Assembly (NCBI GenBank): GCA_026398875.1
Contig: JAPLSB010000008.1
Span: 37,986 to 101,985 of the forward strand
Length of the DNA stretch: 64,000 nucleotides
Reading direction: 5' to 3'
From: Gammaproteobacteria bacterium
Lineage (GTDB): Bacteria > Pseudomonadota > Gammaproteobacteria > Nevskiales > Nevskiaceae
A program made the translations under genes and the position numbers. Of this stretch, positions 43,202 through 60,807 are shown one piece after another. The notes under the pieces are model-generated. The model made no database searches and was not told where the DNA came from. It saw nothing but the letters and a program-made list of their open reading frames with translations. Position 1 is the stretch's first letter, and each line of letters begins with the position of its first letter.

Positions 43202-44512
43202 GTGCAAATCAGCATTTTCGGAATGGGGTACGTCGGCGCCGTCTGTGCAGCCTGCCTTTCGGATTACGGGCATGACGTGATCGGTGTCGACGTGTCCGCC
43301 CTGAAGGTCAAGCTGATCAACTCCGGCCAGTCGCCGATCGTTGAGCCGGGTCTCGGCGAATTGCTCGAAAAGGGCGTGGCCGCCGGCAAGCTGCGCGCCA
43401 CCACCGATACCGAGGAAGCGATTCTGGGCTCGGAACTGACGATGATCTGCGTCGGCACGCCGAGCAAGCGGAACGGTGACCTTGACCTGCGCTACGTCGA
43501 TCAGGTCTGCCGCGAGATCGGTGCGGTGCTGAAGACCAAGTCAGCGCGCCACACCGTCGTCGTCCGCAGCACCGTGCTGCCGGGAACCGTCAAAAACGTG
43601 GTTATCCCAGCGCTCGAGCAGTCGTCCGGCAAGAAGGCCGGAGCCGACTTCGGCGTTGCCGTGAACCCGGAATTCCTGCGCGAAAGCACGGCCATCGCGG
43701 ACTATCGCGAGCCGCCGATGACGGTGATCGGCGAACTTGACGCCGCGTCCGGCGAAGGTCTGGCGTCGATCTACTCGGTGCTTCCGGCGGCCGTGTTCCG
43801 CCGCCCGATCGAAGTCGCCGAGATGGTCAAGTACACCTGCAATGTCTGGCACGCGACCAAGGTCACGTTCGCCAACGAGATCGGCAACATCGCCAAGGCC
43901 TGCGGCGTCGATGGTCGCGAAGTGATGAAGCTGATCTGCGAGGACGACAAGCTCAACCTGTCGTCTTACTACATGAAGCCGGGCTTCGCGTTCGGTGGCT
44001 CATGCCTGCCGAAGGATCTTCGCGCGCTGAACTACCGCTCCACGCAGGTCGAATCGGACAACCCGATGCTGGCCTCGATCATGCGCAGCAACGTGACTCA
44101 GGTCGAGCGTGCGTTCAATCTGGTCGCCGGTTTCGGCAAGCGCAACGTCGCGTTGCTGGGTCTTGCGTTCAAGTCCGGCACCGATGACCTCCGCGAAAGC
44201 CCGCTGGTCGATCTCGCCGAAATGCTGATCGGCAAGGGCTACTCGTTGAAGGTGTTCGACCGCAACGTCGACCACGCCCGCGTCATGGGCACAAACAAGG
44301 ACTACATCGACTCGAAGATTCCGCACGTCTCGAAGCTGCTGACGTCGAGCCTTGCCGAAGTGGTCGACAGCGCCGACATCGTCGTGCTCGGCAACAAGGA
44401 CCCGGAGTTCGCCGATGTCATTGCCAACCTGAAGCCGGGCGTGAAGCTCGTCGATCTCGTCGGCTTCATGCAGACGACGTCGACCGCCGACGCCCAGGGA
44501 ATCTGCTGGTAA
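43202..44512 (+). CDS. algD: GDP-mannose 6-dehydrogenase
   Basis: 436 aa, GTG start. (M)QISIFGMGYVGAVCAACLS...ICVGTPSKRNGDLDL...GFAFGGSCLPKD...ends GICW. Collinear with Pseudomonas AlgD as I recall it, including the catalytic Cys motif and the C-terminus. Confidence 0.95.
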   Translation: MQISIFGMGYVGAVCAACLSDYGHDVIGVDVSALKVKLINSGQSPIVEPGLGELLEKGVAAGKLRATTDTEEAILGSELTMICVGTPSKRNGDLDLRYVDQVCREIGAVLKTKSARHTVVVRSTVLPGTVKNVVIPALEQSSGKKAGADFGVAVNPEFLRESTAIADYREPPMTVIGELDAASGEGLASIYSVLPAAVFRRPIEVAEMVKYTCNVWHATKVTFANEIGNIAKACGVDGREVMKLICEDDKLNLSSYYMKPGFAFGGSCLPKDLRALNYRSTQVESDNPMLASIMRSNVTQVERAFNLVAGFGKRNVALLGLAFKSGTDDLRESPLVDLAEMLIGKGYSLKVFDRNVDHARVMGTNKDYIDSKIPHVSKLLTSSLAEVVDSADIVVLGNKDPEFADVIANLKPGVKLVDLVGFMQTTSTADAQGICW

Positions 44513-44542
44513 GGCGTTCACTGCCAGGTCCGCGAGCACGTC

Positions 44543-46081
44543 ATGAGCCAGTCCAACCCGGCTGACGCAGTTCAGTCCGATGCGTCGTGGCAGTCGCTGG
44601 TCCGCGATTTTGCAGGCTGGATATCGCTGCTGGCGCTGATCGGCGGTCTGGCACTGCTGTTGCCGGGCTTCACTTTCGATCCTTCGCAGTCGCATTTCCT
44701 GGTTGCGGTCGGCGTTGTCGGCTTGTGGCGATATGCGTTGCGCGCCGTGCATTTCGTGCGCGCGATGTGGTTCCTGTACGTGGCGTACCCGCGGATGCGC
44801 GAACGGGCCGCCATGGCAGGAGCCGCCTCGGATCCGTCGCAGGCGTACTTCATGGTCACCAGCTTCCGGATCGACGTCGAGACGACCGCCCGGGTGTATC
44901 GGGCGATCATCGAACAAGCGATTGAATGCGGCTACCGAAGCACGGTGGTCGCATCAATCGTTGAGTACGGCGACGAGCTGCTGATGCGCGCGCTCTGGGA
45001 CACCTACCAGCCTCCGGAGCGCGTCTCGCTGAAGATCGTGCGCATTCCAGGAACCGGCAAGCGCGATGGGCTTGCGTTCGGTTTCCGCGCCATTGCTCGC
45101 GACTGCCCGGATCACCGCGCTCTGGTGGCCGTGATTGACGGGGATTCGGTGCTCGTGCCCGGCATGATGCGCAAGTGCGCGCAGATGTTTCATCTGCTGC
45201 CCGACGTTGGTGCGATGACCACCAACGAGTTCTGCACCGTGCTGGGCTCGAAGCTGATGAGCGAGTGGCACAAGCTGCGTTTCGCCGAGCGCCATCTCAA
45301 TATGTGCTCGATGGCGCTCAGCCGTCGCGTGCTGACGCTGACCGGACGCATGTCGGTATTCCGCGCCCACATCGTCACTCAGCACTCGTTCATCTCGGAC
45401 GTCGAGAATGACTCGATCCTGCACTGGCGCCTCGGCCGAGTGAAGTTCCTGACCGGTGATGACAAGTCGTCGTGGTACAGCGTCGTCAAGCACGGCTGGC
45501 GGACCTTCTACCTGCCCGATGCCGCGATCGAGACCATCGAGCATCCGCCGAATCCGAGCCTCCTGAAAAGCAGTCGTACGCTGATGTTTCGCTGGTACGG
45601 GAACTCGCTTCGCCAGAATGGCCGCGCCCGCGAACTCGGGCCACGTCGGCTCGGCTGGTTCACCTATTACGTGCTGCAGGATCAGCGCGTGCAGATGTGG
45701 ACCGGTCTGCTGGGTCTGCTGGCGACGGTCCTGGCCAGCATCAAATACAACTTCAACTACCTGATCGTGTTCCTGGTCTGGATCGCGGTCACGCGCTGTC
45801 TGATGTGTGTGATGCTGATGACAGCAGGGCATCGCGTGGGTCCGCTGTATCCACCGCTGATGTACTACAACCAGGTGCTCGGTTCGATCATCAAGATCAT
45901 CGTGTTCTTCTTCCCCGACCGTCAGTCGTGGACGCGGCAGAAAACCACGCTGACCAAGCACCTGGACCCGTTCCACGCGCGTTTCAACACGCTGTCGTCA
46001 CGAATCATGCTGTTCTCGGCCTGCAGCGTGTTCGCGGCCGTTGTCACGACCATCGTCACCTTCAAGTCGCCGTTCGGCTGA
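44543..46081 (+). CDS. alg8: Alginate (mannuronan) synthase glycosyltransferase Alg8
   Basis: VTSFRIDVETTARVY...RIPGTGKRDGLA...VIDGDSVL...TNEFC...LTGRMSVFRA...LTGDDKSSW...RWYGNSLRQN are GT2/Alg8 hallmarks, with C-terminal TM helices. Confidence 0.93.
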   Translation: MSQSNPADAVQSDASWQSLVRDFAGWISLLALIGGLALLLPGFTFDPSQSHFLVAVGVVGLWRYALRAVHFVRAMWFLYVAYPRMRERAAMAGAASDPSQAYFMVTSFRIDVETTARVYRAIIEQAIECGYRSTVVASIVEYGDELLMRALWDTYQPPERVSLKIVRIPGTGKRDGLAFGFRAIARDCPDHRALVAVIDGDSVLVPGMMRKCAQMFHLLPDVGAMTTNEFCTVLGSKLMSEWHKLRFAERHLNMCSMALSRRVLTLTGRMSVFRAHIVTQHSFISDVENDSILHWRLGRVKFLTGDDKSSWYSVVKHGWRTFYLPDAAIETIEHPPNPSLLKSSRTLMFRWYGNSLRQNGRARELGPRRLGWFTYYVLQDQRVQMWTGLLGLLATVLASIKYNFNYLIVFLVWIAVTRCLMCVMLMTAGHRVGPLYPPLMYYNQVLGSIIKIIVFFFPDRQSWTRQKTTLTKHLDPFHARFNTLSSRIMLFSACSVFAAVVTTIVTFKSPFG

Positions 46082-46116
46082 TCGCGGCTCCTCCTTCTCG
46101 TCACGGAAACACTTGC

Positions 46117-47292
46117 ATGGCTCAACCAAGCCCCTCCCGGATCGTTCACGAGTCCGAAGCGCAGCGCCAGTTCGTCAGGGTCAAGCTGCCGGCGACGATC
46201 CAGTTCACTGCCGACGGTGCCCGCAAGCAGTTTCAGCTGCACGATATCTCTGCAGGGGGCTTCAGCTTCGACCCCGGCAGCGACACGCTGAAGGTTGGTG
46301 CCGTCCACACCGGCCACGTCGTGCTCAACGTCGACTCGGTCGGATTCACGATTCCGGTGACCTTCGAAGTCCGTACCGTCGATGCCCAGACCGGCCGCGT
46401 CGGCTGCTTCTTCCAGGAGCTCGGCATCAAGGAAGTCTCCGCACTGCGTCAGGTCATCACATCGTTCCTGGGCGGCGAACTGGTCAGCACCGGTGAGATG
46501 CTGACCACGCTGTCGCGCGAGAACTTCGTACGCGCCCGCAGCGGCGGCGGCGGTCTCAGTGCCGGCGGCAAGCTGCGCGCCATCATCGGCACGAGCGTCG
46601 CGCTGGTGGTCGGCCTGGTCGCCTTCAGCTACGCCGCCATCAGGCTCTATGACCTGGTGTTCGTCACCCATGCGACGGCAGCCAAGGTCGCGGCAACGAC
46701 CTTCACGATCAACATGCCGCGTGACGGCACCTTCTTCCCGCTGGTCAAAGAAGGCGGCACGATCAAGAAGGGACAGGCCGTCGGCCAGTTCGAGACGGCG
46801 CTGCTGCAGGTCGTCGAAGGTGTCTCCGGTTCGTTCAAGCTGACGGCGGAGCAGCTGACGGCGCTGATCGGCGAACAATTGCGCGGCTCGATTGCCAGCC
46901 CATGCGACTGCATCGTCCAGAAGGCCTACAGCGTCGGGGGTCAGTACGTGTTGCGCAATCAGGCCGTGATGGAACTGGTGCCGGAAGGCACCAAGCCGTA
47001 CATCCTGGCCCGCTTCCACTATGACCAGATGAAGCGCCTGCCGATCGGCCGCGAAGTCGTGCTGCGCGTCAACGGTTCGCCAGAAACGCTGACCGGCAAG
47101 GTCACGAACCTGCGCGTGCTGCCGGCACCGACGATCGACAGCAATGGTCTGAATGATCTGAACGGTCTCGATACCAGCGCCGCGATCACCGACATCATTG
47201 CGGTGATCACGCCGGACGTGGAACTTGAAACCTCGCGCATCGACCAGCCGGTCGAGATCTTCGTCGACCCGCTGAATCAGTACTTCCGGTGA
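46117..47292 (+). CDS. alg44: Alginate co-polymerase Alg44 (PilZ c-di-GMP receptor plus membrane-fusion-like domain)
   Basis: 391 aa. N-terminal PilZ with R17-QFV-R21 and D43-I-S-A-G-G48, a single TM (AIIGTSVALVVGLVAFSYAAI) and a periplasmic MFP-like C-terminus. Confidence 0.9.
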   Translation: MAQPSPSRIVHESEAQRQFVRVKLPATIQFTADGARKQFQLHDISAGGFSFDPGSDTLKVGAVHTGHVVLNVDSVGFTIPVTFEVRTVDAQTGRVGCFFQELGIKEVSALRQVITSFLGGELVSTGEMLTTLSRENFVRARSGGGGLSAGGKLRAIIGTSVALVVGLVAFSYAAIRLYDLVFVTHATAAKVAATTFTINMPRDGTFFPLVKEGGTIKKGQAVGQFETALLQVVEGVSGSFKLTAEQLTALIGEQLRGSIASPCDCIVQKAYSVGGQYVLRNQAVMELVPEGTKPYILARFHYDQMKRLPIGREVVLRVNGSPETLTGKVTNLRVLPAPTIDSNGLNDLNGLDTSAAITDIIAVITPDVELETSRIDQPVEIFVDPLNQYFR

Positions 47293-47299
47293 TGGCCTG

Positions 47300-49036
47300 A
47301 TGCGTTTTGTCGCCACAGCCGGTGTCGCTGCCCTGCTTGCCTGTTCTGCAGGCTGTTCGTCCGTTTCGGTCAAGACGGGAATCCCGGTCCTGAGCAAAGG
47401 CGGCGAAGGCATCCTGATCGATCAGGCGCGCGGCCTGCCTGATCTGGAACGCGGCAAGCAGGCGCGGCTATCGGGCAATCCGGACGCCGCGCTGCTCGAC
47501 CTGAAACCGCTGGCCGAACAGGGCTATCCGGATGCGATGGTCCAGCTCGCCGGCCTCTATCAGGATCGTGGAACGATCGCGAGCCTCGACGATGCCGAGC
47601 AGTGGTACCGCAAGGCCAAGGAATCAATCCCTGAAGCCGGCCTGTCGCTGGCCGGCCTTCTGATCAATCGCGGTAACCGGCAACTGATCCCGGAGATCGA
47701 CGCGCTGATCCGTGATGCGGATCGCCGCAGCAACCCGGAGGCGGATAGCGCACGTCTGAAACTGCTGATGCAGTTTCCGGATCTTGATGTCGACGGCGTT
47801 GGAGACAGGATCGTCAGGCGCGCCCTTGAGTCCGATCTTCCCGAAGTGCAGACGCAGGCACTGATCTGGTACCGGCTGAACATCGCGCGTGATGGCTACG
47901 CCGCGGCACTTGAGACCAGCTGCTCGAAGCTGCTCGAGGTCGACCCCGCGTGCTACGTCGACCTCGCCCACTTCTATCGCTACCGCGGCGAGCGCGACCG
48001 CCTGAACAAGCTGGTCGATGACGCGCTGATCGTGTTCCAGGCCGCAGCGGGCAACGGCACTGCCGACCGCGCCGATTCGGCGCGGCTGTATCGCGAACCG
48101 ATCGACTATGGCTCGCTGGCCGGTCGACTGGCGGCAGCGATGGTCGACGAAATGCTCGACGAAGACGACGACCTGGCGAAGGAGCGTCTGTCGGGTCTGA
48201 TTCAGGACGTCGAGGACGATGAAGCGACAGAAGCGCTGGTGTCGGCGCCACTGACCACCGACATCGTGTCCGAGACCCCCGGTGCCGCTGCAGCGGCTGC
48301 CCAGGCCAGCGCCACCCAGATCGTGGAACTGGCGGACAAGATCCTGCGCTGGATGCTGGCCAAGGACGCCGGCTTTCGCGCCGAAGCGGCGATCGTGGCC
48401 GTCCGGTTTCCGTTCCTGCTGCCGGAACTCGATCTTGAAGCCACGCTGCGTCCTGTCGTCGACGCTGGCGACCCGGCTGCCGCTCAGGCGCTCGCAAATC
48501 TTCTGTTCAACGGTCAGCGTGGCTACCGCAAACCCTACGAGGCGATCGACCTCTACAAGCGTTGCCTGAACTACGTCGAGACCAAGACCCGTGCCGAGAT
48601 GTCGCTCGGTCGCGCCTACCAGCTTGGCATTCTTGGCAATCCTGACCCGCAGGCGGCGCTGGAGTACTTCCTGCGCGCCGGACGCGCGGGGTCGGTACAG
48701 GCCTACATCGGCCTGGCGCGCATGTTCAGCGGCGTTCCCGGGGTTCGCCCGAACCGCGTCAACACCTATGTGTTCGCGCGCCGCGCACGGGACGGCGGTC
48801 GCTCGCTGCTGTTCCGCGTCCGCAAGCTGAAGCTGCTGACCACGTTGCCGGTCACCATCGACGCTGCGGAAATGTTCGACATCGAAAAAACCACGCTGCT
48901 CGACTACGTCAACGGTGAAATGACACCGCAGGAACGCGAGCAGGCGAAAGCCTTGTATGAAGCGGAGAAAGCGTTCCAGCCCGTGCTGAGGCAACCGATC
49001 CCGCCTGATATCTACACCAAAGGACGCGCTTCATGA
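47300..49036 (+). CDS. algK: Alginate secretion TPR/Sel1-like lipoprotein AlgK (elongated)
   Basis: Lipobox LLACSAGC. GYPDAMVQLAGLY and ...GRAGSVQAYIGLARMFSGVPGVRPNRVNTYVF parallel Pseudomonas AlgK. 578 aa, compared with about 475 aa as I remember it. Confidence 0.85.
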   Translation: MRFVATAGVAALLACSAGCSSVSVKTGIPVLSKGGEGILIDQARGLPDLERGKQARLSGNPDAALLDLKPLAEQGYPDAMVQLAGLYQDRGTIASLDDAEQWYRKAKESIPEAGLSLAGLLINRGNRQLIPEIDALIRDADRRSNPEADSARLKLLMQFPDLDVDGVGDRIVRRALESDLPEVQTQALIWYRLNIARDGYAAALETSCSKLLEVDPACYVDLAHFYRYRGERDRLNKLVDDALIVFQAAAGNGTADRADSARLYREPIDYGSLAGRLAAAMVDEMLDEDDDLAKERLSGLIQDVEDDEATEALVSAPLTTDIVSETPGAAAAAAQASATQIVELADKILRWMLAKDAGFRAEAAIVAVRFPFLLPELDLEATLRPVVDAGDPAAAQALANLLFNGQRGYRKPYEAIDLYKRCLNYVETKTRAEMSLGRAYQLGILGNPDPQAALEYFLRAGRAGSVQAYIGLARMFSGVPGVRPNRVNTYVFARRARDGGRSLLFRVRKLKLLTTLPVTIDAAEMFDIEKTTLLDYVNGEMTPQEREQAKALYEAEKAFQPVLRQPIPPDIYTKGRAS

Positions 49037-50433
49037 ACAGACCGTCGCTGTTGCCCATCGCTGCTGCAGGCCTTCTTGCAACGGCCAGCATGCCGTGCGC
49101 CGCAGTCGAGATCGGGACCGCACTGCGGACCTCGCTCGGCGGACAGGCCGACGGTGCGCGTGATCTTGGCCTCGGTGATCAGTCGAGCAACGAGATCCTC
49201 TACGTCAATCTCGCACCGCGGCTGTCCATCGAGTTCAGCCGTGACTGGGTCTTCTATCTGCGTGCGCGCGCCTTCATGCCGACCGGAGACGTGCTCGACA
49301 CCGATGAAGGTCAGACCACGCTGTCGCGCCGGGTCAGCAGCTTCGTCAAGCTCGACGAGGCATGGATGCGTTTCGGCGGATTCACCAGCTACCCGGGCGA
49401 GTCGGTGCGCATCGGCCACCAGTTCATTCGCGAGAACGAGCGCGGCTTCGTCGGTCGCGACGTCGATGCGCTGTACTGGGTGCTCAACACCACTCGATTC
49501 CAGTCGAGTGCCGGCGTGTTCTACCAGTTCAATGCCTACCGCTCGGACGGCATCGATCTGCCGCTCGATCAGCGCAAGCGCGTCTACGGCTACGGCAATA
49601 TCTCGACCGACTGGATGCCCCAGCATCAGGCCGGCTTCCGTGGCCTGCACGCTCGCGATGTCGGCGGGCTTCCGGGTTCCGGCCAGCCGATCAACGCCGA
49701 GACCAAGCTTGAAGAGGTCAATCTGACCTGGCTGGGCGTCTACCTGAGCAACGGGTATCTGAACCCGCGCAAGCCGAACACCTTCAAGTACTGGCTGGAC
49801 GCGACCTATCTGGTCGGCAACACGTTGTCGAACACCGTGGCGGCCAATCGCCTGACGGGCGGGCTGGACAAGCAATCGATCAGCGCGGTCGCCAGCACGG
49901 TCGGCGTGCGCTGGCGTCCGGGCGTGCTGCCGCTGCTGGTGGGTGCCGAGTACGCGTACAGCGGCGGCGGCACCCAGAGCCAGTACCGGCAGAGCGGCCT
50001 GCAGAGCAACGGGACGCCGTTCACCGGCATCACCACGTCCACCTATCGCTACAACGAGGCCTTGCGTGCGCAGCTCGGCAACCTGCGGGTCGCCACGCTT
50101 TACACCTCGTACAGCCTGCCGAACGACGAAGTGTCGTTGATCGTCCAGAAGTTCAACAAGGACGACCGCTTCGCGCCGATTCTCACCAACAACGTCTCGG
50201 CCGATACCGGCCCGTCCAGCGACATCGGCTACGGCATCGATGTGGTGGCAAGCCACTATCTGCCGACCTTCGGCGTACTGAAGGATCTGTACGAAGACGA
50301 CGACAGCGTCAGCGAGGATCCGCGTTCGGCGATCCGGCTGCGTGCCTCGCTGTTCAATCCCGGCAAGGCCTATGCGTCCGGCGCGGACATCAACTACCGC
50401 GTGATTCTCGAGGCATCGTTGTGGGTGTTCTGA
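49033..50433 (+). CDS. algE: Alginate export outer-membrane beta-barrel porin AlgE
   Basis: Signal peptide. TSYPGESVRIGHQFIRE, LTWLGVY, GAEYAYSGGG, QQSGLQSN-like segments and the terminal ...EASLWVF (aromatic C-terminus). ATGA overlap with algK. Confidence 0.9.
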   Translation: MNRPSLLPIAAAGLLATASMPCAAVEIGTALRTSLGGQADGARDLGLGDQSSNEILYVNLAPRLSIEFSRDWVFYLRARAFMPTGDVLDTDEGQTTLSRRVSSFVKLDEAWMRFGGFTSYPGESVRIGHQFIRENERGFVGRDVDALYWVLNTTRFQSSAGVFYQFNAYRSDGIDLPLDQRKRVYGYGNISTDWMPQHQAGFRGLHARDVGGLPGSGQPINAETKLEEVNLTWLGVYLSNGYLNPRKPNTFKYWLDATYLVGNTLSNTVAANRLTGGLDKQSISAVASTVGVRWRPGVLPLLVGAEYAYSGGGTQSQYRQSGLQSNGTPFTGITTSTYRYNEALRAQLGNLRVATLYTSYSLPNDEVSLIVQKFNKDDRFAPILTNNVSADTGPSSDIGYGIDVVASHYLPTFGVLKDLYEDDDSVSEDPRSAIRLRASLFNPGKAYASGADINYRVILEASLWVF

Positions 50434-52064: not shown

Positions 52065-52124
52065 TCGATCAACACCGTTGTTCAAGATCCAACCGTCCCC
52101 TCCAAGGGACTCGCGAGGCAAACG

Positions 52125-52748
52125 ATGAACAGTTTGAAGAAACTCCTGACGCTGATGGCCGTCACTCTGGTGGCGTTGATTCCGATGCAGGCAGCGGCGC
52201 AGCTGTACACCAAGGGCGCACCGCCGGGATCGGCCTTCATTCGCGTGCTCAACGGTACTGCCGCGCAGAGTCCGCCGGGCTTCATCGGCGAAACCCCGCA
52301 GCCGGCGCTCGCCGCGTTCACGGCAGGGCAGTTCACGTTCCTGCCGCCGGGCGAATACCCGGTGCAGATCGGCAGCCGCAAGGAAACCTTCAAGCTTGCC
52401 GCCGATCGCTTCTACAGCGTTGCCTATCTGTCGAACGGGCTGAAGAGCTTCGAGCTGGAAGGCTTCAAGAGCCAGCTGAAGGCCATGATCGTGATGATGA
52501 ACCTGCTGCCCGAGCAGACGCTGTCGCTGAAGACCGCCGATGGCAAGGTCACCGTGCTCGACGCGGTGGCGCCGTTCAAGGCGGGCCAGCGTGAAATCAA
52601 TCCGCTGTCGGTGTCGCTGGCCATCTTCGATGGCGACCGCAAGATTGCCGACGTGCCGGCCACGGTCTTCGAGCGTGGCAAGGCCTCCAGCCTGATCGTC
52701 GGTGGGTCGGCCGCGGTGCCGATCCTGACCTGGGACGAGCAGAAGTAA
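52125..52748 (+). CDS. algF: Alginate O-acetylation protein AlgF
   Basis: 207 aa with a signal peptide. LYTKGAPPGSAFIRVLNG...FLPPGEYPVQIG...LSLKTADGKVTVLDAVAPFKAGQREINPLSVSLAIFDG parallels Pseudomonas AlgF. Confidence 0.85.
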   Translation: MNSLKKLLTLMAVTLVALIPMQAAAQLYTKGAPPGSAFIRVLNGTAAQSPPGFIGETPQPALAAFTAGQFTFLPPGEYPVQIGSRKETFKLAADRFYSVAYLSNGLKSFELEGFKSQLKAMIVMMNLLPEQTLSLKTADGKVTVLDAVAPFKAGQREINPLSVSLAIFDGDRKIADVPATVFERGKASSLIVGGSAAVPILTWDEQK

Positions 52749-52781
52749 GCCAACCTCATCCGGACCAGAGCGCGGTTGATC

Positions 52782-54182
52782 ATGATCATTCCTCGGACCC
52801 AGGGCATCGCCGGCGTCTTGCTGGCGACGGCCGCGGCCGTCGCCACGACACCGGCGCGTGCTGCAGAGGCGGCTCAGCCGGCAACCCCGGTCTACCCGGC
52901 CGAAACCTGCTGTTCCGTGTGTCCGAAGGTCTATGACCGTGATGCGTACATCAGCGAGTACATGCGCGGCTACCGCATCATCGTCGAGGGCACGGACGGT
53001 TGGCTGTTCCGATCGGAAGCCGAACTGCAATGGGTTGAACCGGCCGACGACACGATCTGGCCGCAGCTGCGTCGCCTTGCCGACGCGCTGAAGGCGCGCG
53101 GCACGCAGGTGGTGATGTATCCGCAGCCACCGCGCGGTTTGATCGAAGCCAACAACCTCAACCCGGAAGATCTGAAGCAGTTCGATATCGACCTGCTGCA
53201 GAAGCGTTACAGCGACCTCGTGGCCAAGCTTCGCGGCCTCGGCTTCATCGTCGTTGATGCGTCCGTGTTCAGCCGCCACAGCGGCGATCCGTACTTCTTC
53301 AAGCGCGATGGTCACTGGAGCCCGGCCGGTGCGCGTGAAGCGGCGGCGGTGATCGCCAAGCAGATCAAGGAATCCGGATTCGAATTGCCGCCGGTGGCTT
53401 TTCAGACCAAGCAGATCGGGGTCGCCGGCGCGCGAGGCACGCTGTCGTTCGTCATCAACAGCCTGTGCGGCCTGAAGTACCCGATGGAGTTCAAGCCGGC
53501 ATTCCGGACCACGGCGCCGGCGTCTGACGACCTGTTCGGTGACGCCGAAGCGCCGCAGGCAGCGCTGATCGGCACCAGCTTTTCGGCAACGCCGAACTAC
53601 AATTTTTACGGCTTCCTGCGCGAGGACCTGCAGGCGGACGTGCTGCAGGCAGCGTTTCCAGGCGGTGGCTTCGATGGCGCACTGACCCAGTTCCTGGCCT
53701 CCGATCTGTTCCAGAAGTCGCCGCCGAAAGTGCTGATCTGGGAGTTCCCGTACCAGCAGCTGCATCGCACCGATACCGCCGTGATGCGCCGCATGCTGCC
53801 GCTGGTCAACAACGGCTGCACCGGCAAGGAAGCGCTGCTTACCGGCAAGACCACGCTGAAGACGGGCGGTCAGTTCGCGGAAGTGCTCGTCAACGGTGGC
53901 AAGTCCTTCAATTCGGTACCGGCCAAGGATGTCTGGCTGGAGCTGCAGTTCTCCGATCCGAACATCCGTTCGGTCAGTGCGGAAGTCTGGTACGGCAACG
54001 GCAAGGTCCAGACGATCAACAGCGAATACAACGTCTATACGAAAATGAGTGGCCGGTACGTGTTCGAGACGAACTATCTGCCGGACACCGAGGTCGAGCC
54101 GATCGTGTCGGTACGCGTCAAGAGCGTGACCGAAACCTCGGACAAGACGACCGTGACCGGCACCGTATGCAAGCGCGTCTGA
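52782..54182 (+). CDS. algX: Alginate O-acetyltransferase AlgX (SGNH-like domain plus C-terminal carbohydrate-binding module)
   Basis: FFKRDGHWSPAGA (D-x-H), LIGTSFS (Ser), KVLIWEFPYQQL and LPLVNNGCTGK are collinear with Pseudomonas AlgX. The start could be the TTG at 52776 or the ATG at 52782. Confidence 0.88.
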   Translation: MIIPRTQGIAGVLLATAAAVATTPARAAEAAQPATPVYPAETCCSVCPKVYDRDAYISEYMRGYRIIVEGTDGWLFRSEAELQWVEPADDTIWPQLRRLADALKARGTQVVMYPQPPRGLIEANNLNPEDLKQFDIDLLQKRYSDLVAKLRGLGFIVVDASVFSRHSGDPYFFKRDGHWSPAGAREAAAVIAKQIKESGFELPPVAFQTKQIGVAGARGTLSFVINSLCGLKYPMEFKPAFRTTAPASDDLFGDAEAPQAALIGTSFSATPNYNFYGFLREDLQADVLQAAFPGGGFDGALTQFLASDLFQKSPPKVLIWEFPYQQLHRTDTAVMRRMLPLVNNGCTGKEALLTGKTTLKTGGQFAEVLVNGGKSFNSVPAKDVWLELQFSDPNIRSVSAEVWYGNGKVQTINSEYNVYTKMSGRYVFETNYLPDTEVEPIVSVRVKSVTETSDKTTVTGTVCKRV

Positions 54183-54186
54183 TGCC

Positions 54187-55350
54187 ATGAATTACGGCCG
54201 CCTGACTATTGCCGGCTTCGCGATCACGATCGCGGCAACCACCGCTTGTCGCTCTGATCAGCGGCCGACCGAGCCGCTGCCTGCTACAGCGTCCAGCCCG
54301 GCTGCGTCGGGATCGGCTTCCGATGCGCGCCTGCGGGCGCCGGGTCAGTTTGCGATGGCGCCGGTCGGCAGCAAGAAGCGCGGTGGCGGCGATTGCGACG
54401 CCTCACTGCGTCCGTTCACGTCCGCGCTCGATTTCCCCAGCAAGTACGAAGGCTCGGGCAAGTCGCGAGACACGCTGAATACGGATGCCGATCGCCGCTA
54501 CAAGGCTGCAATGGCGGACTTGTCGACGCTCGAGACGACATCAGTCAAGGTGGTCGGACGCTACCTGCAGAACGGCGATGCCGCAGGCCTCGCCTGCATC
54601 GTCAAGGTTCTCGACAACTGGGCGCAGGTCGACGCCCTGCTGGGCCCCGCGCCGGAACACACCGGCCGGGCCGTCCGCAAATGGGTGCTCGCCAGCATCA
54701 GTGCGGCGTACCTGCGTCTGAAGCTTTCGCCGACCGCGCCGCTGGCAGAATTTGCCGACCAGGAAAAGCACATCGACGCCTGGCTGAGAAAACTGGGCAA
54801 CCGCGTGGTTGCCGAGTGGCCGACGGATGTCCCGCTGAACAAGGTCAACAACCATTACTACTGGACGGCCTGGGCATTGGTCGCCACCGGCACGGCACTC
54901 AACGATCGCGCGCTGTTCGAGTACGGGCTGCGCATCTACCGGATATTCGAATCGCAGGTCGGCAACGACGGGGTGCTGCAGAACGAGTTGAACCGGAAGT
55001 CGCGCGCCCTGGAGTACCACGTCTACGCCCTCGGTCCGCTGGCGCTGGTCGCGGCATTCGCGAATGCCAATAGCTATCCGGTCGACGTCTCGCCGACCGC
55101 GCCGCTGTCGCGGCTGGCGGCACTATCGTTCTCCAGTCTTGGCAATCCGGACATCCTCGCCGGCCGCGCCGGCGCGCGACAGGAAACCTTTGACAGCGCC
55201 GCCACCAACTATGCGTGGATGGAACCGTATTGCTACGTCGCGCAATGTCCCGACGCGATGCAGCAGCAGCTGGCCAGCGTCCGGCCGCTCAGCAGCACGC
55301 GCATGGGCGGGAACCTGACCCAGATCTTCGACCGGCGCACGACACCGTGA
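54187..55350 (+). CDS. algL: Alginate lyase AlgL (PL5 family)
   Basis: NNHYYWTAWAL (PL5 NNHSYW motif), LQNELNRKSRALEYHVYALGPL, YAWMEPYC. 387 aa with an N-terminal signal/lipoprotein-like region. Confidence 0.9.
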   Translation: MNYGRLTIAGFAITIAATTACRSDQRPTEPLPATASSPAASGSASDARLRAPGQFAMAPVGSKKRGGGDCDASLRPFTSALDFPSKYEGSGKSRDTLNTDADRRYKAAMADLSTLETTSVKVVGRYLQNGDAAGLACIVKVLDNWAQVDALLGPAPEHTGRAVRKWVLASISAAYLRLKLSPTAPLAEFADQEKHIDAWLRKLGNRVVAEWPTDVPLNKVNNHYYWTAWALVATGTALNDRALFEYGLRIYRIFESQVGNDGVLQNELNRKSRALEYHVYALGPLALVAAFANANSYPVDVSPTAPLSRLAALSFSSLGNPDILAGRAGARQETFDSAATNYAWMEPYCYVAQCPDAMQQQLASVRPLSSTRMGGNLTQIFDRRTTP

Positions 55351-56228
55351 ACAGAACACTTTTTGCGCTTGGGCTCATCGGTCTGCTGGCCGCGCGACCT
55401 GCGCTGGCGGACAACCAGGCCGATGCACTGCGTTACGTCGCCATCTGCCAGAACGAGATCAAGCGCGCCGCGGATCTGCTGAACGCCGCGAAGATCTGCA
55501 AGGAATCGACCGAAAACATTCGCGTGCTGGTCGGCGAATCCCCGCTGTACGTCGGCAACCTGATCACCGAAGCGGACAACAAGGTCGCGCTCGGCAACTA
55601 CCCCGCAGCGTTCGATCTGTACTCGCTTGCCGCCAATGCCGCGGACCATCTCGGTGATGCCGCGAAGGTTCGTGCCTTGCGCATTCGTCAGGCCGACGTC
55701 CAACTGTCTCGCGGCAAACCGTTCCACGCCGAAATCCTGTTGCGCGATGCATTGACGCGGCTTCGAGCGCTCCCGCGCAGCCGAGAACTGGCGACCGAAG
55801 AAGCCGACCTGCTCAGCCGTCATGCCGCAACGCTGACCGCGCTCGATCAGCTGCCGGCTGCCATTGCAGAGTTTCAGGAAGCCTTGGCCCGTCTGGAACT
55901 GGCACCTCCTTCGGCGCGACCGGTGGCCATGGCCGTGTGGTCGCGTTACGGCGACGCACTGGAGCGGCGCAATCGCTACGGAGATGCCCTCGAAGCCTAT
56001 CGGCGCGTGCTGACACTGGCGCGGATCAACCCGGTGGATCACGTTCAGTCGAGCTACGCCTACCAGCAGATCGGGTGGATGCATGAGCTGATGCACAACC
56101 CGAACGACGCAATCGCGACCTACCGGAAGCAGTTGCAGGTGCTGAAAAAGCTTCCCGAGCAGCAAGCCGTCGCCACCGAGATCACGCGTCGACTCGCGGC
56201 TCTGGGTGCTGCGCCGGAACCAGGCTGA
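55347..56228 (+). CDS. Secreted TPR-like repeat protein (an extra gene, not part of the canonical alg operon)
   Basis: A GTG at 55347 overlaps the algL TGA (GTGA). Signal peptide (V)NRTLFALGLIGLLAARPALA|DN. Repeated A-x-x-x-Y/F-x-x-A-L helical-hairpin motifs (GNYPAAFDLYSLAA, LPAAIAEFQEALARL, YGDALEAYRRVLTLA, PNDAIATYRKQLQVL). Confidence 0.65.
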   Translation: MNRTLFALGLIGLLAARPALADNQADALRYVAICQNEIKRAADLLNAAKICKESTENIRVLVGESPLYVGNLITEADNKVALGNYPAAFDLYSLAANAADHLGDAAKVRALRIRQADVQLSRGKPFHAEILLRDALTRLRALPRSRELATEEADLLSRHAATLTALDQLPAAIAEFQEALARLELAPPSARPVAMAVWSRYGDALERRNRYGDALEAYRRVLTLARINPVDHVQSSYAYQQIGWMHELMHNPNDAIATYRKQLQVLKKLPEQQAVATEITRRLAALGAAPEPG

Positions 56229-56285
56229 GCGCGCAGCGCGCGGAATACACAGACATAGCAGTCGAACGGCAACAGGATCGAATCA

Positions 56286-57449
56286 ATGACGGACAAGAGT
56301 GCACCCGGCGCGGCATCGGGGACGGGTATGAAGGGCGGCTACGCAATCGTCGGCATCGTCTTTGCGCTGGTCGTCGGCGCACTGTCTCTGTCGAGCGTGA
56401 AGGCAGTCGCAACTTATCGCGCGCCACCGGTGACGGTGCTTGACGGCGCGCTGGTCCGCAACTTCGAACAGCACTTCGACAAGGAGTTCCCGCTGCGCAC
56501 CGCCAGCGTGAACTTCTGGACGGCGCTGCAGCTCGTGCTGTTCCGTGAGGGCAAGATCGGCGTGCTGCTCGGTCAGGACGGCTGGCTGTACTCGAACGAA
56601 GAGTTCCATGTGCTGCCGCGCTGGGAGCAGATCATCGAGCAGAACCTCGAAGTGATCCGCTGGACCCAGACCACATTGTCGGAGGCCGGGATTCCGCTGG
56701 TGGTGGTCGTGGTGCCCGAAAAGGCGCACATCTATCCGGAGCATGTCGGTGACCATCGCCAGGCGACGGCGCATGGGCAAGTGATGGCGCGGCTGCGCTC
56801 GGCGATCAGCGAGCAGACCACGCTGATCACGCTCAACGAGACCTACGCTGCCGCCAAGGCCACGCAGCCGCTGTTCTTTCACACCGACACCCACTGGACG
56901 CCGACTGGCGCACGAATCGCGGCACGCGCGGTGACCGATGCGATGAAGGCCAAGGGCCTCGCAACCAAGGTCGATCAGCCGGCGGCGTTCTCGACCACCG
57001 AGCAGCCAGAAACGAGCTTCGCCGGCGATCTGCTGTCGTTCCTGCCGCTGGAGCCGATGTTCCCGAGCCTGATGCCGAAGGCGGATACCTACATTCCGGT
57101 GGCCACCAAGGCCATCGAGAAAGAGGCCAGTGCCGATGCGCTGCTGGGTGACGAGTCGGTGCCGGAAGTGGCCGTCGTCGGCACCAGCTACACCGCCAAC
57201 GATCGCTGGAACTTCCAGGGCTACCTGAGCGAGTTCCTGAACGAACCACTGGCCGACTATTCGAAGGAAGGCATCGGCCCGTTCCCGCCGATGGCGCAGT
57301 TCCTGACCGGTCCGGACTACGCCAGCCACAAGCCGCGCGTGGTGATCTGGGAGATTCCGGAGCGTTCTCTGCTGGGCAAGGCCGCACTGGCGGGTATCCC
57401 GCTGCCGGAATCGCTGAACACCAAGCTGGCCTCGATCAAGCCGAGATAA
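56286..57449 (+). CDS. algJ: Alginate O-acetyltransferase AlgJ (membrane-anchored AlgX/AlgJ SGNH-like family)
   Basis: N-terminal anchor YAIVGIVFALVVGALSL. GQDGWLY, VVVVVPEK, FFHTDTHWTPTGA (D-x-H), VVGTSYT (Ser). 387 aa. Confidence 0.85.
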   Translation: MTDKSAPGAASGTGMKGGYAIVGIVFALVVGALSLSSVKAVATYRAPPVTVLDGALVRNFEQHFDKEFPLRTASVNFWTALQLVLFREGKIGVLLGQDGWLYSNEEFHVLPRWEQIIEQNLEVIRWTQTTLSEAGIPLVVVVVPEKAHIYPEHVGDHRQATAHGQVMARLRSAISEQTTLITLNETYAAAKATQPLFFHTDTHWTPTGARIAARAVTDAMKAKGLATKVDQPAAFSTTEQPETSFAGDLLSFLPLEPMFPSLMPKADTYIPVATKAIEKEASADALLGDESVPEVAVVGTSYTANDRWNFQGYLSEFLNEPLADYSKEGIGPFPPMAQFLTGPDYASHKPRVVIWEIPERSLLGKAALAGIPLPESLNTKLASIKPR

Positions 57450-57453
57450 GCGC

Positions 57454-58884
57454 GTGGTCTTTTCATCAAACGCGTTCCTGCTGCTGTTCCTGCCGCTGTT
57501 CCTGCTGCTGTATTACCTGACCCCGAACACCCGCCGGCTGCGGAACTATGTGGTTCTGGCCGCCAGCTACGTGTTCTACGGCTGGTGGCGGCCGGACTTC
57601 CTGTCATTGCTGATCTCGGTCACGCTGTTCAACTTCGTGATCGGCCGGCAGATCGGCATTGCCGGCGCGCGGACCAGCGAAGCACGGCGCTGGATGCGGC
57701 TCGGCGTGGCTGTCGATCTCGCTGTGCTCGGCTACTTCAAGTACCGCGACTTCGGCATCGAAAGCTTCAACTCGATCATCCAGGCCACCGGGTTCGAGCC
57801 GTTCACGCTGTCGGAACTGCTGCTGCCGATCGGCATCTCGTTCTACATCTTCGAATCGATCAGTTACATCATCGATGTCTACCGCGGCAGCGTGAAGCCG
57901 ACGCGGCATCTCGCCGATTTCGCGACGTTCATCACGATGTTCCCGCATCTGATCGTCGGCCCGCTGTTCCGTTACAAGGAAATGGCCGCACAGCTGGAAC
58001 ACCGCGTCCACTCGATGGACATGTTCGGGCGCGGCGCCGTGCGCTTCATGCAGGGCTTCGTCAAGAAAGTCGTCATCGCCGACACGCTGGCGCCGATGGT
58101 CAACTACTGCTTCGCGCTGCCCGATCCGAGCACGGCTGACGTCTGGATCGGCGTGCTTGCCTATGGCGTGCAGCTGTACTTCGATTTCTCCGGCTACAGC
58201 GACATGGCGATCGGCCTTGGCCTGATGATGGGCTTCAAGTTCGTCGAGAACTTCAACAAGCCGTTCATCAGCCAGAGCGTCACCGAATTCTGGCGCCGCT
58301 GGCACATCAGCCTCAGCAACTGGCTGCGCGACTACGTGTTCTATTCGCTCGGCGGAACTGCCCGCAAGACGCGCATGCGGCTGCATTACATGACGTTCAT
58401 GACGTTTCTGATCGGCGGCATCTGGCACGGCGCGAACTGGACGTTCGTGCTCTGGGGCGCGTTGCAGGGAGGGCTGCTGCTGTTCGAACGGATGTTGGGC
58501 GTGAACGGCAATCCGACACGCTTCAAGTTTCAGCACTGGGCACTGACATTCATCGTTGCGGTTGCCATGAGCATGGTGCTGTTCCGCGCTGACAACGTGT
58601 CGCGCGCAGCCGAAATGTACAAGTCGATGCTGTTCTTCCAGAACGTCGGCTGGATCAGCGAGCCGTTCGCCGGCGCCATCAGCACCATGCAGATCGCCAC
58701 CCTGATCCTGGCCTACGGGCTGGTGATCTTCGAGGGCCTGCGCGAGTACGGCCCCAAGATCCAGCTCGGCAGCGAGCGGGTTCGGGTGGTGTCGTCGGTG
58801 CTGCTGCTGACGCCGCTGTTCTTTCTCGCGATCACAAAGTTGTCGGCTCAAGGCTACTCGGCGTTCCTGTACTTCCAGTTCTGA
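57454..58884 (+). CDS. algI: Alginate O-acetylase AlgI (MBOAT), copy 1
   Basis: 476 aa, GTG start. FLLLFLPLF..., GISFYIFESISYIIDVYRG, FWRRWHISLSNWLRDYVF (MBOAT His). Confidence 0.93.
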   Translation: MVFSSNAFLLLFLPLFLLLYYLTPNTRRLRNYVVLAASYVFYGWWRPDFLSLLISVTLFNFVIGRQIGIAGARTSEARRWMRLGVAVDLAVLGYFKYRDFGIESFNSIIQATGFEPFTLSELLLPIGISFYIFESISYIIDVYRGSVKPTRHLADFATFITMFPHLIVGPLFRYKEMAAQLEHRVHSMDMFGRGAVRFMQGFVKKVVIADTLAPMVNYCFALPDPSTADVWIGVLAYGVQLYFDFSGYSDMAIGLGLMMGFKFVENFNKPFISQSVTEFWRRWHISLSNWLRDYVFYSLGGTARKTRMRLHYMTFMTFLIGGIWHGANWTFVLWGALQGGLLLFERMLGVNGNPTRFKFQHWALTFIVAVAMSMVLFRADNVSRAAEMYKSMLFFQNVGWISEPFAGAISTMQIATLILAYGLVIFEGLREYGPKIQLGSERVRVVSSVLLLTPLFFLAITKLSAQGYSAFLYFQF

Positions 58885-58937
58885 CAGGCACCGCCCTTTC
58901 CTTGAGCCCAATAAAAATGAATCCCTGGTAAGCCCCC

Positions 58938-60362
58938 ATGGTTTTTTCTTCGAACGTCTTCCTGCTGCTGTTCCTGCCGCTGTTCCTGTCGGTGTATTAC
59001 CTGACACCGAACAAGCGCAGGCTCCGCAACTACGTGATCCTTGCCGGCAGCTATTTCTTCTACGGCTGGTGGCGGATCGACTTCCTCGGCCTGTTCGCAG
59101 CCGTCACGATCTTCAACTACTTCGTCGGTGCCGCGATCGGCAATGCCGGCGTCGGGAAGCCGCTGGCGCGCCGCTGGATGAAGCTCGGCGTGGTCGTCAA
59201 TCTGCTCGTGCTCGGCTACTTCAAGTACGCCAACTTCGGCGTCGCCAGCTTCAACGAGCTGATGGCCGGATTCGGCTTCGAACCGTTCGTGATGGCCAGC
59301 GTGCTGCTGCCGATCGGTATCTCGTTCTACATCTTCGAATCGATCAGCTACATCGTCGATGTCTACCGCGGTGATGCCGAAGCCACCAAGCATCCGGTGG
59401 ACTTCGCGACGTTCGTGTCGCTGTTCCCGCACCTGATCGCCGGCCCGATCTTCCGCTACAAGGATCTGGCCGATCAGTTCGAGCAGCGCGACCACTCGGC
59501 GCAGCTGTTCGGGCTGGGCGCGACGCGCTTCATGCAGGGCTTCGTCAAGAAGGTCATCGTCGCCGACACGGTCGCGCCATTGGCCGACTACTGCTTCTCG
59601 CTGACCAATCCGTCGACGGCCGACGCCTGGCTCGGCGCCATCGCCTACACGGTGCAGCTGTACTTCGACTTTTCCGGCTACAGCGACATGGCGATCGGCC
59701 TCGGCCTGATGATCGGCTTCCGCTTCATGGAAAACTTCAACGCGCCGTACATCTCGCAGAGCATCACCGAGTTCTGGCGGCGCTGGCACATCAGCCTGTC
59801 GAGCTGGCTGCGCGACTACCTGTACATCCCGCTCGGCGGCAACCGCAACGGCGATGCCGCCACGCACCGCAACGTGATCATCACGTTCTTCCTCGGCGGC
59901 GTCTGGCACGGTGCGAACTGGACGTTCCTGGCCTGGGGCGCGATGCAGGGCTTCATGATCTTCATCGAGCGCGTGATGGGCATCAGCGGAGCGCCGAAAA
60001 CCTTCCGCGCCACGCGCTGGCTGATCACCTTCGTGCTGGTGGTGATCAGCTGGACGGTGTTCCGCGCCGCCAGCATCAGCGAAGCCTGGCGGATGTATCA
60101 GCCGATGTTCCTGCTGAAGAACGTCGGCGGCCTCAGCGATCCGATGCTGACGATGATCTCCGGCCTGCAGATCTCGATGCTGGTGTTCGCGGCGGTGTTC
60201 GTGCTCGCCGAGGGCCTGCTGGCCTATGGCCCGAAGCGGGCACCGCTGTCGGAGCGCAGCAAGGCGCTGCTCGTGGTCGGATTGCTGATGCCGCTGTTCG
60301 CGATGTCGATCATGAAGCTGTCGGCACAGGGCTACTCGGCGTTCCTGTACTTCCAGTTCTGA
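58938..60362 (+). CDS. algI: Alginate O-acetylase AlgI-like MBOAT, copy 2 (tandem paralog)
   Basis: 474 aa, collinear with copy 1. 47 of the first 60 residues are identical by my count, the C-terminal KLSAQGYSAFLYFQF is identical, and the last 33 nt are identical. Confidence 0.93.
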   Translation: MVFSSNVFLLLFLPLFLSVYYLTPNKRRLRNYVILAGSYFFYGWWRIDFLGLFAAVTIFNYFVGAAIGNAGVGKPLARRWMKLGVVVNLLVLGYFKYANFGVASFNELMAGFGFEPFVMASVLLPIGISFYIFESISYIVDVYRGDAEATKHPVDFATFVSLFPHLIAGPIFRYKDLADQFEQRDHSAQLFGLGATRFMQGFVKKVIVADTVAPLADYCFSLTNPSTADAWLGAIAYTVQLYFDFSGYSDMAIGLGLMIGFRFMENFNAPYISQSITEFWRRWHISLSSWLRDYLYIPLGGNRNGDAATHRNVIITFFLGGVWHGANWTFLAWGAMQGFMIFIERVMGISGAPKTFRATRWLITFVLVVISWTVFRAASISEAWRMYQPMFLLKNVGGLSDPMLTMISGLQISMLVFAAVFVLAEGLLAYGPKRAPLSERSKALLVVGLLMPLFAMSIMKLSAQGYSAFLYFQF

Positions 60363-60370
60363 TCCTGCCC

Positions 60371-60399
60371 GGGCTGCAGCGGCACAGCCGCTGCAGCCC
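60371..60399. terminator. Strong stem-loop at the end of the alg cluster (no U-tract)
   Basis: GGGCTGCAGCGGC-aca-GCCGCTGCAGCCC, a 13-bp perfect GC-rich stem 9 nt after the algI-2 stop. Confidence 0.5.
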
Positions 60400-60487
60400 A
60401 TGTCGACTCACCAACGCCGCACGCCTTCCGCGAAGCCAAGGCCGCGTATCGCGGGCTCAAGCATCCGGGTGGGTTGCCAAGCCCGGC

Positions 60488-60685: not shown

Positions 60686-60748
60686 GGTCGAAATCTCCTC
60701 GTCGTGACCGGTCCGGTCTGGCGCCGGGCCTGAGCTTCGATCATCAAC

Positions 60749-60776: not shown

Positions 60777-60807
60777 TTCATTCAGCGTCTGCTGCAGCGA
60801 ATCGGTC

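Follow-up and report, generated by a model that had tools for sequence, protein, structure and literature searches.

Organization of the locus

The 64-kb stretch of gammaproteobacterial DNA analysed here (hereafter, the window) carries a cluster for an alginate-type exopolysaccharide (EPS) at positions 43202-60362, where the list of open reading frames (ORFs) and Pfam searches place 13 ORFs on the plus strand in the order algD-8-44-K-E-G-F-X-L-TPR-J-I-I, the tenth encoding a tetratricopeptide repeat (TPR) protein (Table 1). Overlaps read directly from the sequence join algK to algE (ATGA, 49033-49036) and algL to the TPR gene (GTGA, 55347-55350); algE and algG overlap by 13 nt (50421-50433), and all remaining intergenic gaps are 60 nt or shorter, spacing that would fit a single operon. 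The domain set of the alginate machinery is complete by Pfam, and the proteins are 30-68% identical to the Alg proteins of Pseudomonas and Azotobacter, with the catalytic or ligand-binding residues retained in AlgD, Alg44, AlgX, AlgJ, AlgL and both AlgI copies. No cluster protein reached an equivalog-level assignment in NCBIfam, which we read as divergence and not as evidence against function. These results bear out much of a preliminary description made from the sequence: its 13 co-directional and tightly packed genes with three overlaps, its gene list, with which the Pfam assignments of the individual ORFs agree, the motifs that it quoted, all of which were found in the cluster proteins, and its flanking genes (an alkyltransferase-like (ATL) gene on the left, a small ORF and an M13 peptidase gene on the right).

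The preliminary description had left the host to be placed. The window also encodes argS, topA and aceE, and its TopA is 82% identical to that of Nevskia sp. metagenome-assembled genomes (MAGs), 80% to that of Nevskia soli and 76% to that of Hydrocarboniphaga; the host is therefore an uncultured gammaproteobacterium of the Nevskiaceae (Nevskiales). MAG GCA_029865755.1 and many metagenome contigs also carry a locus identical to that of the window, and the record names of related contigs point to lake, fen and algae-associated metagenomes.

Table 1. Features of the alginate-type cluster and its upstream region (positions within the window).
Feature	Position	Strand	Evidence and remarks
Long non-coding region with conserved blocks	42444..43201	+	Alignment with five relatives
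algD, GDP-mannose 6-dehydrogenase	43202..44512	+	Three UDPG_MGDP_dh domains; 68% identity to P. paraeruginosa AlgD
alg8, glycosyltransferase family 2 (GT2) polymerase	44543..46081	+	Glyco_tranf_2_3; 60% identity to Pseudomonas Alg8; DGD and LMFRW motifs
alg44, cyclic di-GMP (c-di-GMP)-binding co-polymerase	46117..47292	+	PilZ and HlyD_3/BSH_ALG44/Beta-barrel_ALG44
Exchangeable cassette, type 1 in the window (without DPHD)	46520..56450	+	Sliding nucleotide identity; per-gene dN/dS
algK, outer-membrane lipoprotein	47300..49036	+	Sel1/TPR_AlgK; N-terminus MRFVATAGVAALLACSAGC with Cys
algE, outer-membrane export porin	49033..50433	+	Alginate_exp, E = 3.6e-30; C-terminus ...SLWVF
algG-like, periplasmic beta-helix	50421..52064	+	Beta_helix/NosD; fold matches 4NK6
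algF, acetylation-complex adaptor	52125..52748	+	Pfam AlgF (PF11182), E = 6.9e-40
algX, SGNH-like O-acetyltransferase with carbohydrate-binding module	52782..54182	+	ALGX and CBM_26; D/H/S triad kept
algL, polysaccharide lyase family 5 (PL5) periplasmic alginate lyase	54187..55350	+	Alginate_lyase; K, NNHYYW, R and Y conserved
Periplasmic all-TPR protein, 293 aa	55347..56228	+	TPR_12; GTGA coupling to algL
algJ, membrane-anchored SGNH-like acetyl relay	56286..57449	+	ALGX domain, E = 1.4e-71
algI1, membrane-bound O-acyltransferase (MBOAT), divergent paralogue	57454..58884	+	56-58% identity to Pseudomonas/Azotobacter AlgI
algI2, MBOAT, nearer classical AlgI	58938..60362	+	62-63% identity to Pseudomonas/Azotobacter AlgI

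An AlgG-like protein without the epimerase residues

The AlgG-like protein matches the P. syringae AlgG structure (4NK6) over its full length (E = 4e-98). Its catalytic DPHD motif is replaced by NIRD at 51423-51434, and the 'SRE' Arg is replaced by Asn (51507-51509), the window reading YGVNIRDRS...KYGIFIAND against the conserved YGIDPHDRS...KHGIIVSRE. Three of the four DPHD residues (Asp, Pro and His) are altered, the His to Arg; a Tyr located five positions ahead of the His is retained. NIRD was found on six independent contigs. DPHD together with the Arg was found in 87 of 96 loci, the other nine all having the cassette type of the window (type 1 of the two types described below), and in 194 of 212 sequences comprising AlgG-family proteins and representatives at 50% identity. 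In sister lineages with the same cassette the motif reads NIHD and SIHD, also with Asn for Arg; the AlgG proteins of loci L087 and L088 retain the motif His, and Arg at the His position is confined to the lineage of the window. With three lineages 14-20% apart in AlgG, the loss of the epimerase residues is, by these alignments, old and fixed within one cassette type. A few unrelated members of the AlgG family also deviate, with AVRE (P0073), SVRG (P0102), FPQE (P0200) and DLYD (P0213), and the representatives P0040/P0041 have DLHE/DLHD with Gly.

The algG-like gene is intact, and its non-synonymous and synonymous divergence from L087 (dN/dS 0.11/0.90, a ratio of ~0.12, comparable to that of adjacent genes) indicates that it is evolving under purifying selection. 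Identity to L009, a locus from a more distant Nevskia MAG, is 47% for AlgG of the window's cassette versus 53-54% for AlgG of cassette type 2, and AlgG is the sole cassette protein that lies further from the outgroups than its cassette-2 counterpart; this extra divergence fits relaxed catalytic constraint on a protein whose scaffold role would have been kept. In P. aeruginosa, AlgG(D324A) gives a guluronate fraction (FG) of 0 and high-molecular-weight acetylated polymannuronate, and under DPHD substitutions the alginate is non-epimerised and the protective role of AlgG persists (PMC4436075). The His of DPHD probably abstracts the C5 proton, and an Arg of AlgG neutralises the carboxylate (PMC4444821). 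Because DPHD and the Arg are lost yet constraint is retained, the AlgG-like protein most likely acts as a scaffold only, and this allele would give guluronate-free O-acetylated polymannuronate, the product probably being not a true alginate but acetylated polymannuronate. The 'differently modified mannuronate polymer' anticipated in the preliminary description is thus plausible, the lost catalytic residues of AlgG being the strongest reason for it; neither this loss nor the cassette polymorphism described below figured in that description. The literature search returned nothing specific on natural AlgG proteins lacking DPHD or on natural mannuronan producers.

The locus might instead be an ordinary alginate operon in shuffled order, its AlgG homologue epimerising through substitute residues to give a normal alginate of mannuronate and guluronate. 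The conservation of all other components with their catalytic residues would agree with this, as would the retained Tyr, the His of L087 and L088 and the purifying selection on the gene, and some operon clades have a reordered algIJF without reported loss of function (PMC7112194). We nevertheless consider it unlikely, since the changes in the window remove both the proton-abstracting His and the neutralising Arg, the single D324A substitution suffices to abolish epimerisation in P. aeruginosa, the motif is otherwise conserved across the family, and AlgG alone is extra-diverged within the window's cassette.

Alternatively, the AlgG-like protein may have gained another activity, for example lyase-type beta-elimination, that would shorten or alter the mannuronan. 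In pectate lyases, which share the beta-helix fold, the base is an Arg, and an Arg occupies the His position of AlgG in the window. Strong purifying selection would fit a retained function, and epimerases and lyases share mechanism and fold, AlgE7 doing both (PMC4444821). Such a gain is nonetheless improbable, given that the Arg is found in the lineage of the window only, the sisters having His, that the neutralising Arg, needed by a lyase too, is lost, and that the cluster already encodes a dedicated, intact PL5 lyase (AlgL); the scaffold role is known to be essential on its own, which accounts for the constraint (PMC4436075, PMC4444821).

An exchangeable periplasmic and outer-membrane cassette

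The window was compared with loci L095/L096 (conspecific with it downstream of the centre), the L007/L088 pair, L090-L094, L097 and L098. A central block of ~9-10 kb, comprising the periplasmic part of alg44, algK-E-G-F-X-L-TPR and the first ~55 codons of algJ, differs in its history from both ends of the cluster. Protein identity between L007 and the window is high on the left (AlgD 95%, Alg8 91%, Alg44 90%), falls in the centre (AlgK 53%, AlgE 66%, AlgG 50%, AlgF 77%, AlgX 58%, AlgL 51%, TPR protein 45%) and rises again on the right (AlgJ 79%, AlgI1 91%, AlgI2 94%). The nucleotide identity of L095 to the window is 0.98-1.00 over ~56450-62100 (algI1, algI2 and the M13 peptidase gene; dS 0.04 for algI1 and 0.02 for algI2) versus 0.45-0.70 upstream of ~56450, where dS is saturated and dN is 0.16-0.58. 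Likewise, L088 (cassette 1) and L007 (cassette 2) are 0.90-0.98 identical in the flanks, algD, alg8 and the 3' part of algJ (algD dS 0.16), whereas their central proteins are only 41-78% identical. Such a contrast within two pairs of close genomes shows recombination and not rate variation. Both pairs share their right breakpoint, at ~56450 (algJ codon ~50-55), just past the membrane anchor in the conserved LVRNFEQHFDKEFPL stretch. The left boundary is stepwise, with identity falling after the PilZ domain of Alg44 (~46520) and again at the alg44/algK junction.

The two cassettes have the same genes in the same order and differ only in their sequences and in the AlgG active site. All cassette-2 copies keep DPHD, and the catalytic residues of AlgX, AlgJ and AlgL are kept in both types. 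Cassette 1 occurs with the same flanks in three diverged lineages. Both types are equidistant from the outgroups, which indicates that they are old sister alleles within the clade. By these comparisons, the periplasmic/outer-membrane module is a recombining cassette, of which conspecific or near-conspecific strains carry a ~50%-divergent alternative. The exchanged unit appears to consist of periplasmic and outer-membrane parts that interact with one another. Both cassettes might be maintained by pressure from phages or grazers, directed at AlgE or the polymer type, or by gel properties that suit different niches.

Import from outside was also weighed. Total GC is lower in the cluster than elsewhere in the window (0.632 versus 0.669), as the preliminary description had estimated by hand; the acquisition hint that it drew from this is not borne out. 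GC at third codon positions (GC3) is 0.837 in the cluster and 0.845 elsewhere (Mann-Whitney p = 0.70), the dip being restricted to codon positions 1 and 2 and therefore reflecting amino-acid composition, and several diverged relatives have the cluster bracketed by these same flanking genes. The GC-based case for recent acquisition is rejected on the GC3 test. In the wider form of the idea, the cluster would be a recently acquired genomic island and the mosaic would result from whole clusters having been imported repeatedly from other lineages. In its favour, besides the lower total GC, the Nevskia MAG locus L008 holds the same cluster within different flanks, and a laterally transferred algI/algJ cassette has been suggested before (Franklin et al. 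2004, as cited in PMC4432689). We judge it very improbable: flanks are identical in at least five related lineages, the change is limited to the central block with breakpoints inside alg44 and algJ, and both cassettes are equally distant from the outgroups. The absence of integrase, tRNA and insertion sequence (IS) stated in the preliminary description holds for tRNA genes, of which a scan of the whole window found none, and for integrase and IS domains among the flanking ORFs scanned, where none was found. In L008 (Nevskia sp. MAG C18), which has the same 13-gene architecture, the flanks contain no matches to the ATL or M13 peptidase genes; the cluster or its surroundings would thus have moved at a deeper taxonomic level.

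That the exchange is an assembly artefact, with contigs of co-occurring strains joined at conserved stretches, is scarcely credible even though all cassette data are metagenomic, the right junction lies at a highly conserved algJ stretch and L095 and L096 may come from one sample: a chimera would require a double switch returning to the same background, cassette 2 occurs with these flanks in NCBI, ENA, JGI and Logan assemblies (one 4.43 Mb contig included), which makes chimeras unlikely, cassette 1 recurs with the same flanks in the three diverged lineages, and the L088/L007 pair independently shows the same breakpoint.

The TPR protein and two AlgI paralogues

The TPR protein has a signal peptide, two invariant Cys residues and an RGK..AE motif. 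Its AlphaFold2 model, predicted with database homologues, has a predicted local distance difference test (pLDDT) score of 90 and forms an all-helical superhelix of 13 helices with no catalytic domain; the top Foldseek matches are the TPR domains of LGN, Pins and kinesin light chain (KLC) (template modelling (TM) score 0.73-0.78), and a profile search of the PDB also matched KLC (E = 6e-14). The family is small, with only six sequence clusters in a set of 5.8 billion proteins. The preliminary description had taken the gene for an unrelated insertion; this is contradicted by its homologues, which follow algL, often with translational coupling, in every cluster of the F-X-L type, including the distant L009 and L010. 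The TPR gene and the second algI co-occur in the cluster type of the window, and neither is found in the two other order types. The TPR protein may be an extra periplasmic adaptor, perhaps tied to the second MBOAT.

The two copies of algI that the preliminary description called a duplication are indeed present, but the duplication is not recent. AlgI1 and AlgI2 are 61% identical, both with the conserved MBOAT His, and across lineages the two copies fall into separate clades; AlgI2 is no closer to AlgI1 than to AlgI of Pseudomonas and Azotobacter (62-63%). By these identities and clades, the two are old paralogues. A canonical operon with two adjacent algI matches was also seen in L042, a Pseudomonas MAG from a Nanopore bin, where they probably represent a gene split by a frameshift in a long-read assembly and not a duplication.

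Among the remaining components, AlgD has GGSCLPKD with a conserved Cys268. Alg44, starting at 46117 and 391 aa long, has a cytoplasmic PilZ domain, a transmembrane segment and a periplasmic domain resembling membrane fusion proteins, and its c-di-GMP site (R17xxxR21 and DxSxxG) is kept. AlgJ has conserved DTH (193-195 in the P. paraeruginosa protein) and GTSY motifs, and algX has an alternative TTG start at 52776. The dS of algD was unusually low in every comparison (L007, L008, L087, L088, L093), at ~0.5-0.65 even against L008, for which dS exceeds 2 in alg8 and alg44; this suggests strong constraint at the codon or mRNA level, or a recombination history of its own.

Distribution and comparison with known systems

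An AlgG profile scan of one genome per GTDB species yielded 572 relatives, of which the best 80 were kept, and the proteins of the window were mapped onto those loci. Not one of the 66 loci recovered from Pseudomonas, Azotobacter and Azorhizophilus has the order of the window, and the non-canonical order claimed in the preliminary description therefore stands. Complete loci of these three genera have the canonical D-8-44-(K)-E-G-X-L-I-J-F with algA downstream, AlgK being too diverged to score in most canonical-order loci. A D-8-44-K-E-G-I-J-F-X-L order, with algA upstream of algD, occurs in Dyella, one Nevskia MAG and Stagnimonas. The order of the window was met only in a few uncultured relatives (L007/L097, L008, L087, L088-L096 and L098), and L009 has ...F-X-L-TPR-I-J-I. 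Within this sampling, the order is a lineage-specific variant, recurring in several relatives but distinct from the Pseudomonas pattern. Alginate operons with a rearranged algIJF, and others termed 'atypical', had been described earlier in general terms (Bundalovic-Torma et al. 2020, PMC7112194); the literature search found no description of this particular architecture and nothing specific on alginate clusters of Nevskia or Xanthomonadales. In the Dyella and Nevskia MAG loci L011, L014, L020 and L034, the algA gene upstream of algD, at ~1-2200, encodes a protein 50-53% identical to Pseudomonas AlgA, and two of these loci come from cultured Dyella isolates, which are open to experiments.

The closest well-studied system, the algD operon of P. 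aeruginosa (algD-8-44-K-E-G-X-L-I-J-F-A), shares twelve co-directional gene families with the window, the first six in the same order, together with the c-di-GMP site of Alg44, the triads of AlgX and AlgJ, the residues of AlgL and the His of AlgI. It differs in that the window has algF after algG, algJ before algI, two algI genes, the TPR gene after algL and no algA, in that the window's AlgG is without DPHD and the Arg and the equivalog cut-offs are unmet, and in the polymorphism of the window's central module between strains. The alg cluster of A. vinelandii and A. chroococcum is canonical as in Pseudomonas and shows similar identity to the window and the same differences; guluronate blocks in Azotobacter depend on the secreted epimerases AlgE1-7 (PMC4444821). 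The clusters of Dyella, Stagnimonas and the Nevskia MAG, and the rearranged and atypical classes of PMC7112194, occur outside Pseudomonas and, like the window, have relocated acetylation genes; unlike the window, they carry algA and a single algI, lack the TPR gene and keep DPHD intact in AlgG. The window's AlgG-like protein resembles laboratory AlgG mutants (P. aeruginosa D324A and epimerase-negative P. fluorescens), in which the scaffold is kept, epimerisation is lost and acetylated polymannuronate is made (PMC4436075, PMC4444821), except that its loss of motif residues is natural, involves several positions and is old.

Capsule (K) and O-antigen loci have conserved flanking genes around a variable centre that is exchanged by homologous recombination. 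As in those loci, conserved ends (algD, alg8 and the 5' part of alg44 on one side; the 3' part of algJ, algI1 and algI2 on the other) bracket a divergent, swapped centre in the clusters studied here. Unlike in those loci, the gene content of the cassette is constant, and the system is synthase-dependent and not Wzy- or ABC-dependent.

A model for polymer synthesis and its implications

Taken together, the data make it probable, on balance, that the locus encodes a functional, single-operon, synthase-dependent alginate-type EPS system with a scaffold-only AlgG and a recombining periplasmic/outer-membrane cassette, whose product would be O-acetylated polymannuronate without guluronate. In this model, AlgD would produce GDP-mannuronate from GDP-mannose supplied by a phosphomannose isomerase/GDP-mannose pyrophosphorylase (PMI/GMP) enzyme encoded outside the window, and Alg8 with the c-di-GMP receptor Alg44 would polymerise beta-1,4-polymannuronate and carry the chain across the inner membrane. 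AlgK, AlgX, the AlgG-like beta-helix, AlgF and probably the TPR protein would form a periplasmic/outer-membrane assembly leading the chain to the AlgE porin, with AlgL clearing stray periplasmic polymer. AlgI1 and AlgI2 would pass acyl groups via AlgJ and AlgF to AlgX, which would O-acetylate the chain, in keeping with the AlgJFXK complex model for O-acetylation (PMC10641220). The roles of AlgD, of Alg8 with Alg44, of AlgK with AlgE, of AlgL and of the O-acetylation proteins are assigned by homology and conserved residues; expression as an operon, the composition of the polymer and the role of the second AlgI are predicted here from gene content, spacing and conserved residues.

Several points weigh against this model. 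We take the neutralising Arg to be that of the 'SRE' motif, 26 residues past the His, from the numbering of the P. syringae protein. The review we consulted supports only 'an arginine' (PMC4444821), and PMC4432689 gives no residue numbers for the His or Arg of AlgG. The two sister lineages with the same cassette that keep the His (NIHD and SIHD) may have residual or altered activity. Secreted AlgE-type epimerases encoded elsewhere in the genome could add guluronate after export, and the polymer is predicted entirely from MAGs and metagenome contigs. A tblastn search with Pseudomonas AlgA found no match in the 64 kb of the window, in agreement with the absence of algA noted in the preliminary description, nor in the +/-10 kb flanks of relatives, which leaves the precursor supply unproven. 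Three proteins stay below the NCBIfam equivalog cut-offs, namely AlgG (406 bits versus 700), AlgK (116 versus 700) and AlgL (331 versus 429 for the mannuronate-specific lyase models). Finally, L095 and L096 show 100% identity and could represent two assemblies of a single sample, so that the same-species cassette contrast for the lineage of the window comes from one population; the L088/L007 pair and L098 independently show the cassette pattern.

Alginate biosynthesis is understood almost wholly from Pseudomonas and Azotobacter, for which the operon is regarded as conserved and AlgG is assigned the two roles of epimerase and scaffold. The naturally epimerase-dead AlgG and the cassette polymorphism are both well supported at the level of sequence. 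Evolution appears to have separated the two roles of AlgG here, the catalytic residues having been lost and the scaffold kept. According to a 2015 review, natural mannuronan producers had not been identified (PMC4444821); the organism of the window is a candidate, and pure polymannuronate is wanted as a substrate for the tailoring of alginates by epimerases. The whole module from the periplasmic domain of Alg44 to the anchor of AlgJ appears to be exchangeable as a unit between close relatives, its breakpoints map which parts must co-evolve, and strain-level EPS types may exist in a synthase-dependent system. The TPR protein and second AlgI, together in this cluster type only, are testable additions to the acetylation machinery. 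A bolder proposal, which we hold tentatively and regard as rather doubtful, is that strains of one Nevskiaceae species swap the ~9-10 kb module and so toggle between a DPHD AlgG making true alginate and a dead NIRD/NIHD/SIHD AlgG making pure O-acetylated polymannuronate, that carriers of the dead allele are the first natural mannuronan producers, and that the TPR protein and second MBOAT form a second acyl-transfer route.

Upstream region and neighbouring genes

In an alignment with five relatives, the distant L008 included, the region upstream of algD contains invariant blocks at 42866-42957 (TTTGTGACG..., TAGTGCACTTT, ...CCGTATACTTGTTGCGCTGCAGCGA) and 43056-43072 (GTGGCGCGAAACATGCA), and a further conserved block is an inverted repeat, GAGCGCTC..GAGCGC (~43157-43180), immediately 5' of the algD ribosome-binding site; the blocks have a putative regulatory role. 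The relatives have a sigma-70-like GTGACA-N16-TATACT upstream of algD. The window reads ATATCA at the -35 position, its -35 element and the overlapping CTGTGACAG palindrome being replaced by CTATATCAG, a change that may represent a weakened or re-regulated promoter. A sigma-70 consensus scan of 42300-61000 found no promoter, a terminator consensus scan of the same interval found terminators no more often than in shuffled sequence, and inspection by eye upstream of algD for a promoter of the AlgU/sigma-E type (GAACTT-N16/17-TCTGA) gave no convincing match. An Rfam scan of the whole window at the gathering thresholds returned no match.

The left flank holds a SnoaL gene and the ATL-type gene, with a DNA_binding_1 domain; on the right, the small ORF and the M13 peptidase gene are followed by a poly(A) polymerase gene. 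The small ORF (65 aa, ~60488-60685, minus strand), which lies between algI2 and the M13 peptidase gene and has no Pfam match, was called at the same position in every related locus (L001, L087, L090, L091, L095, L097 and L098). Elsewhere in the window, the ORF for pyruvate dehydrogenase E1 (29742-33131) is listed at 1129 aa, with Pfam domains beginning at ~residue 320; the true start probably lies further downstream than listed, unless the protein has an unusual N-terminal extension.

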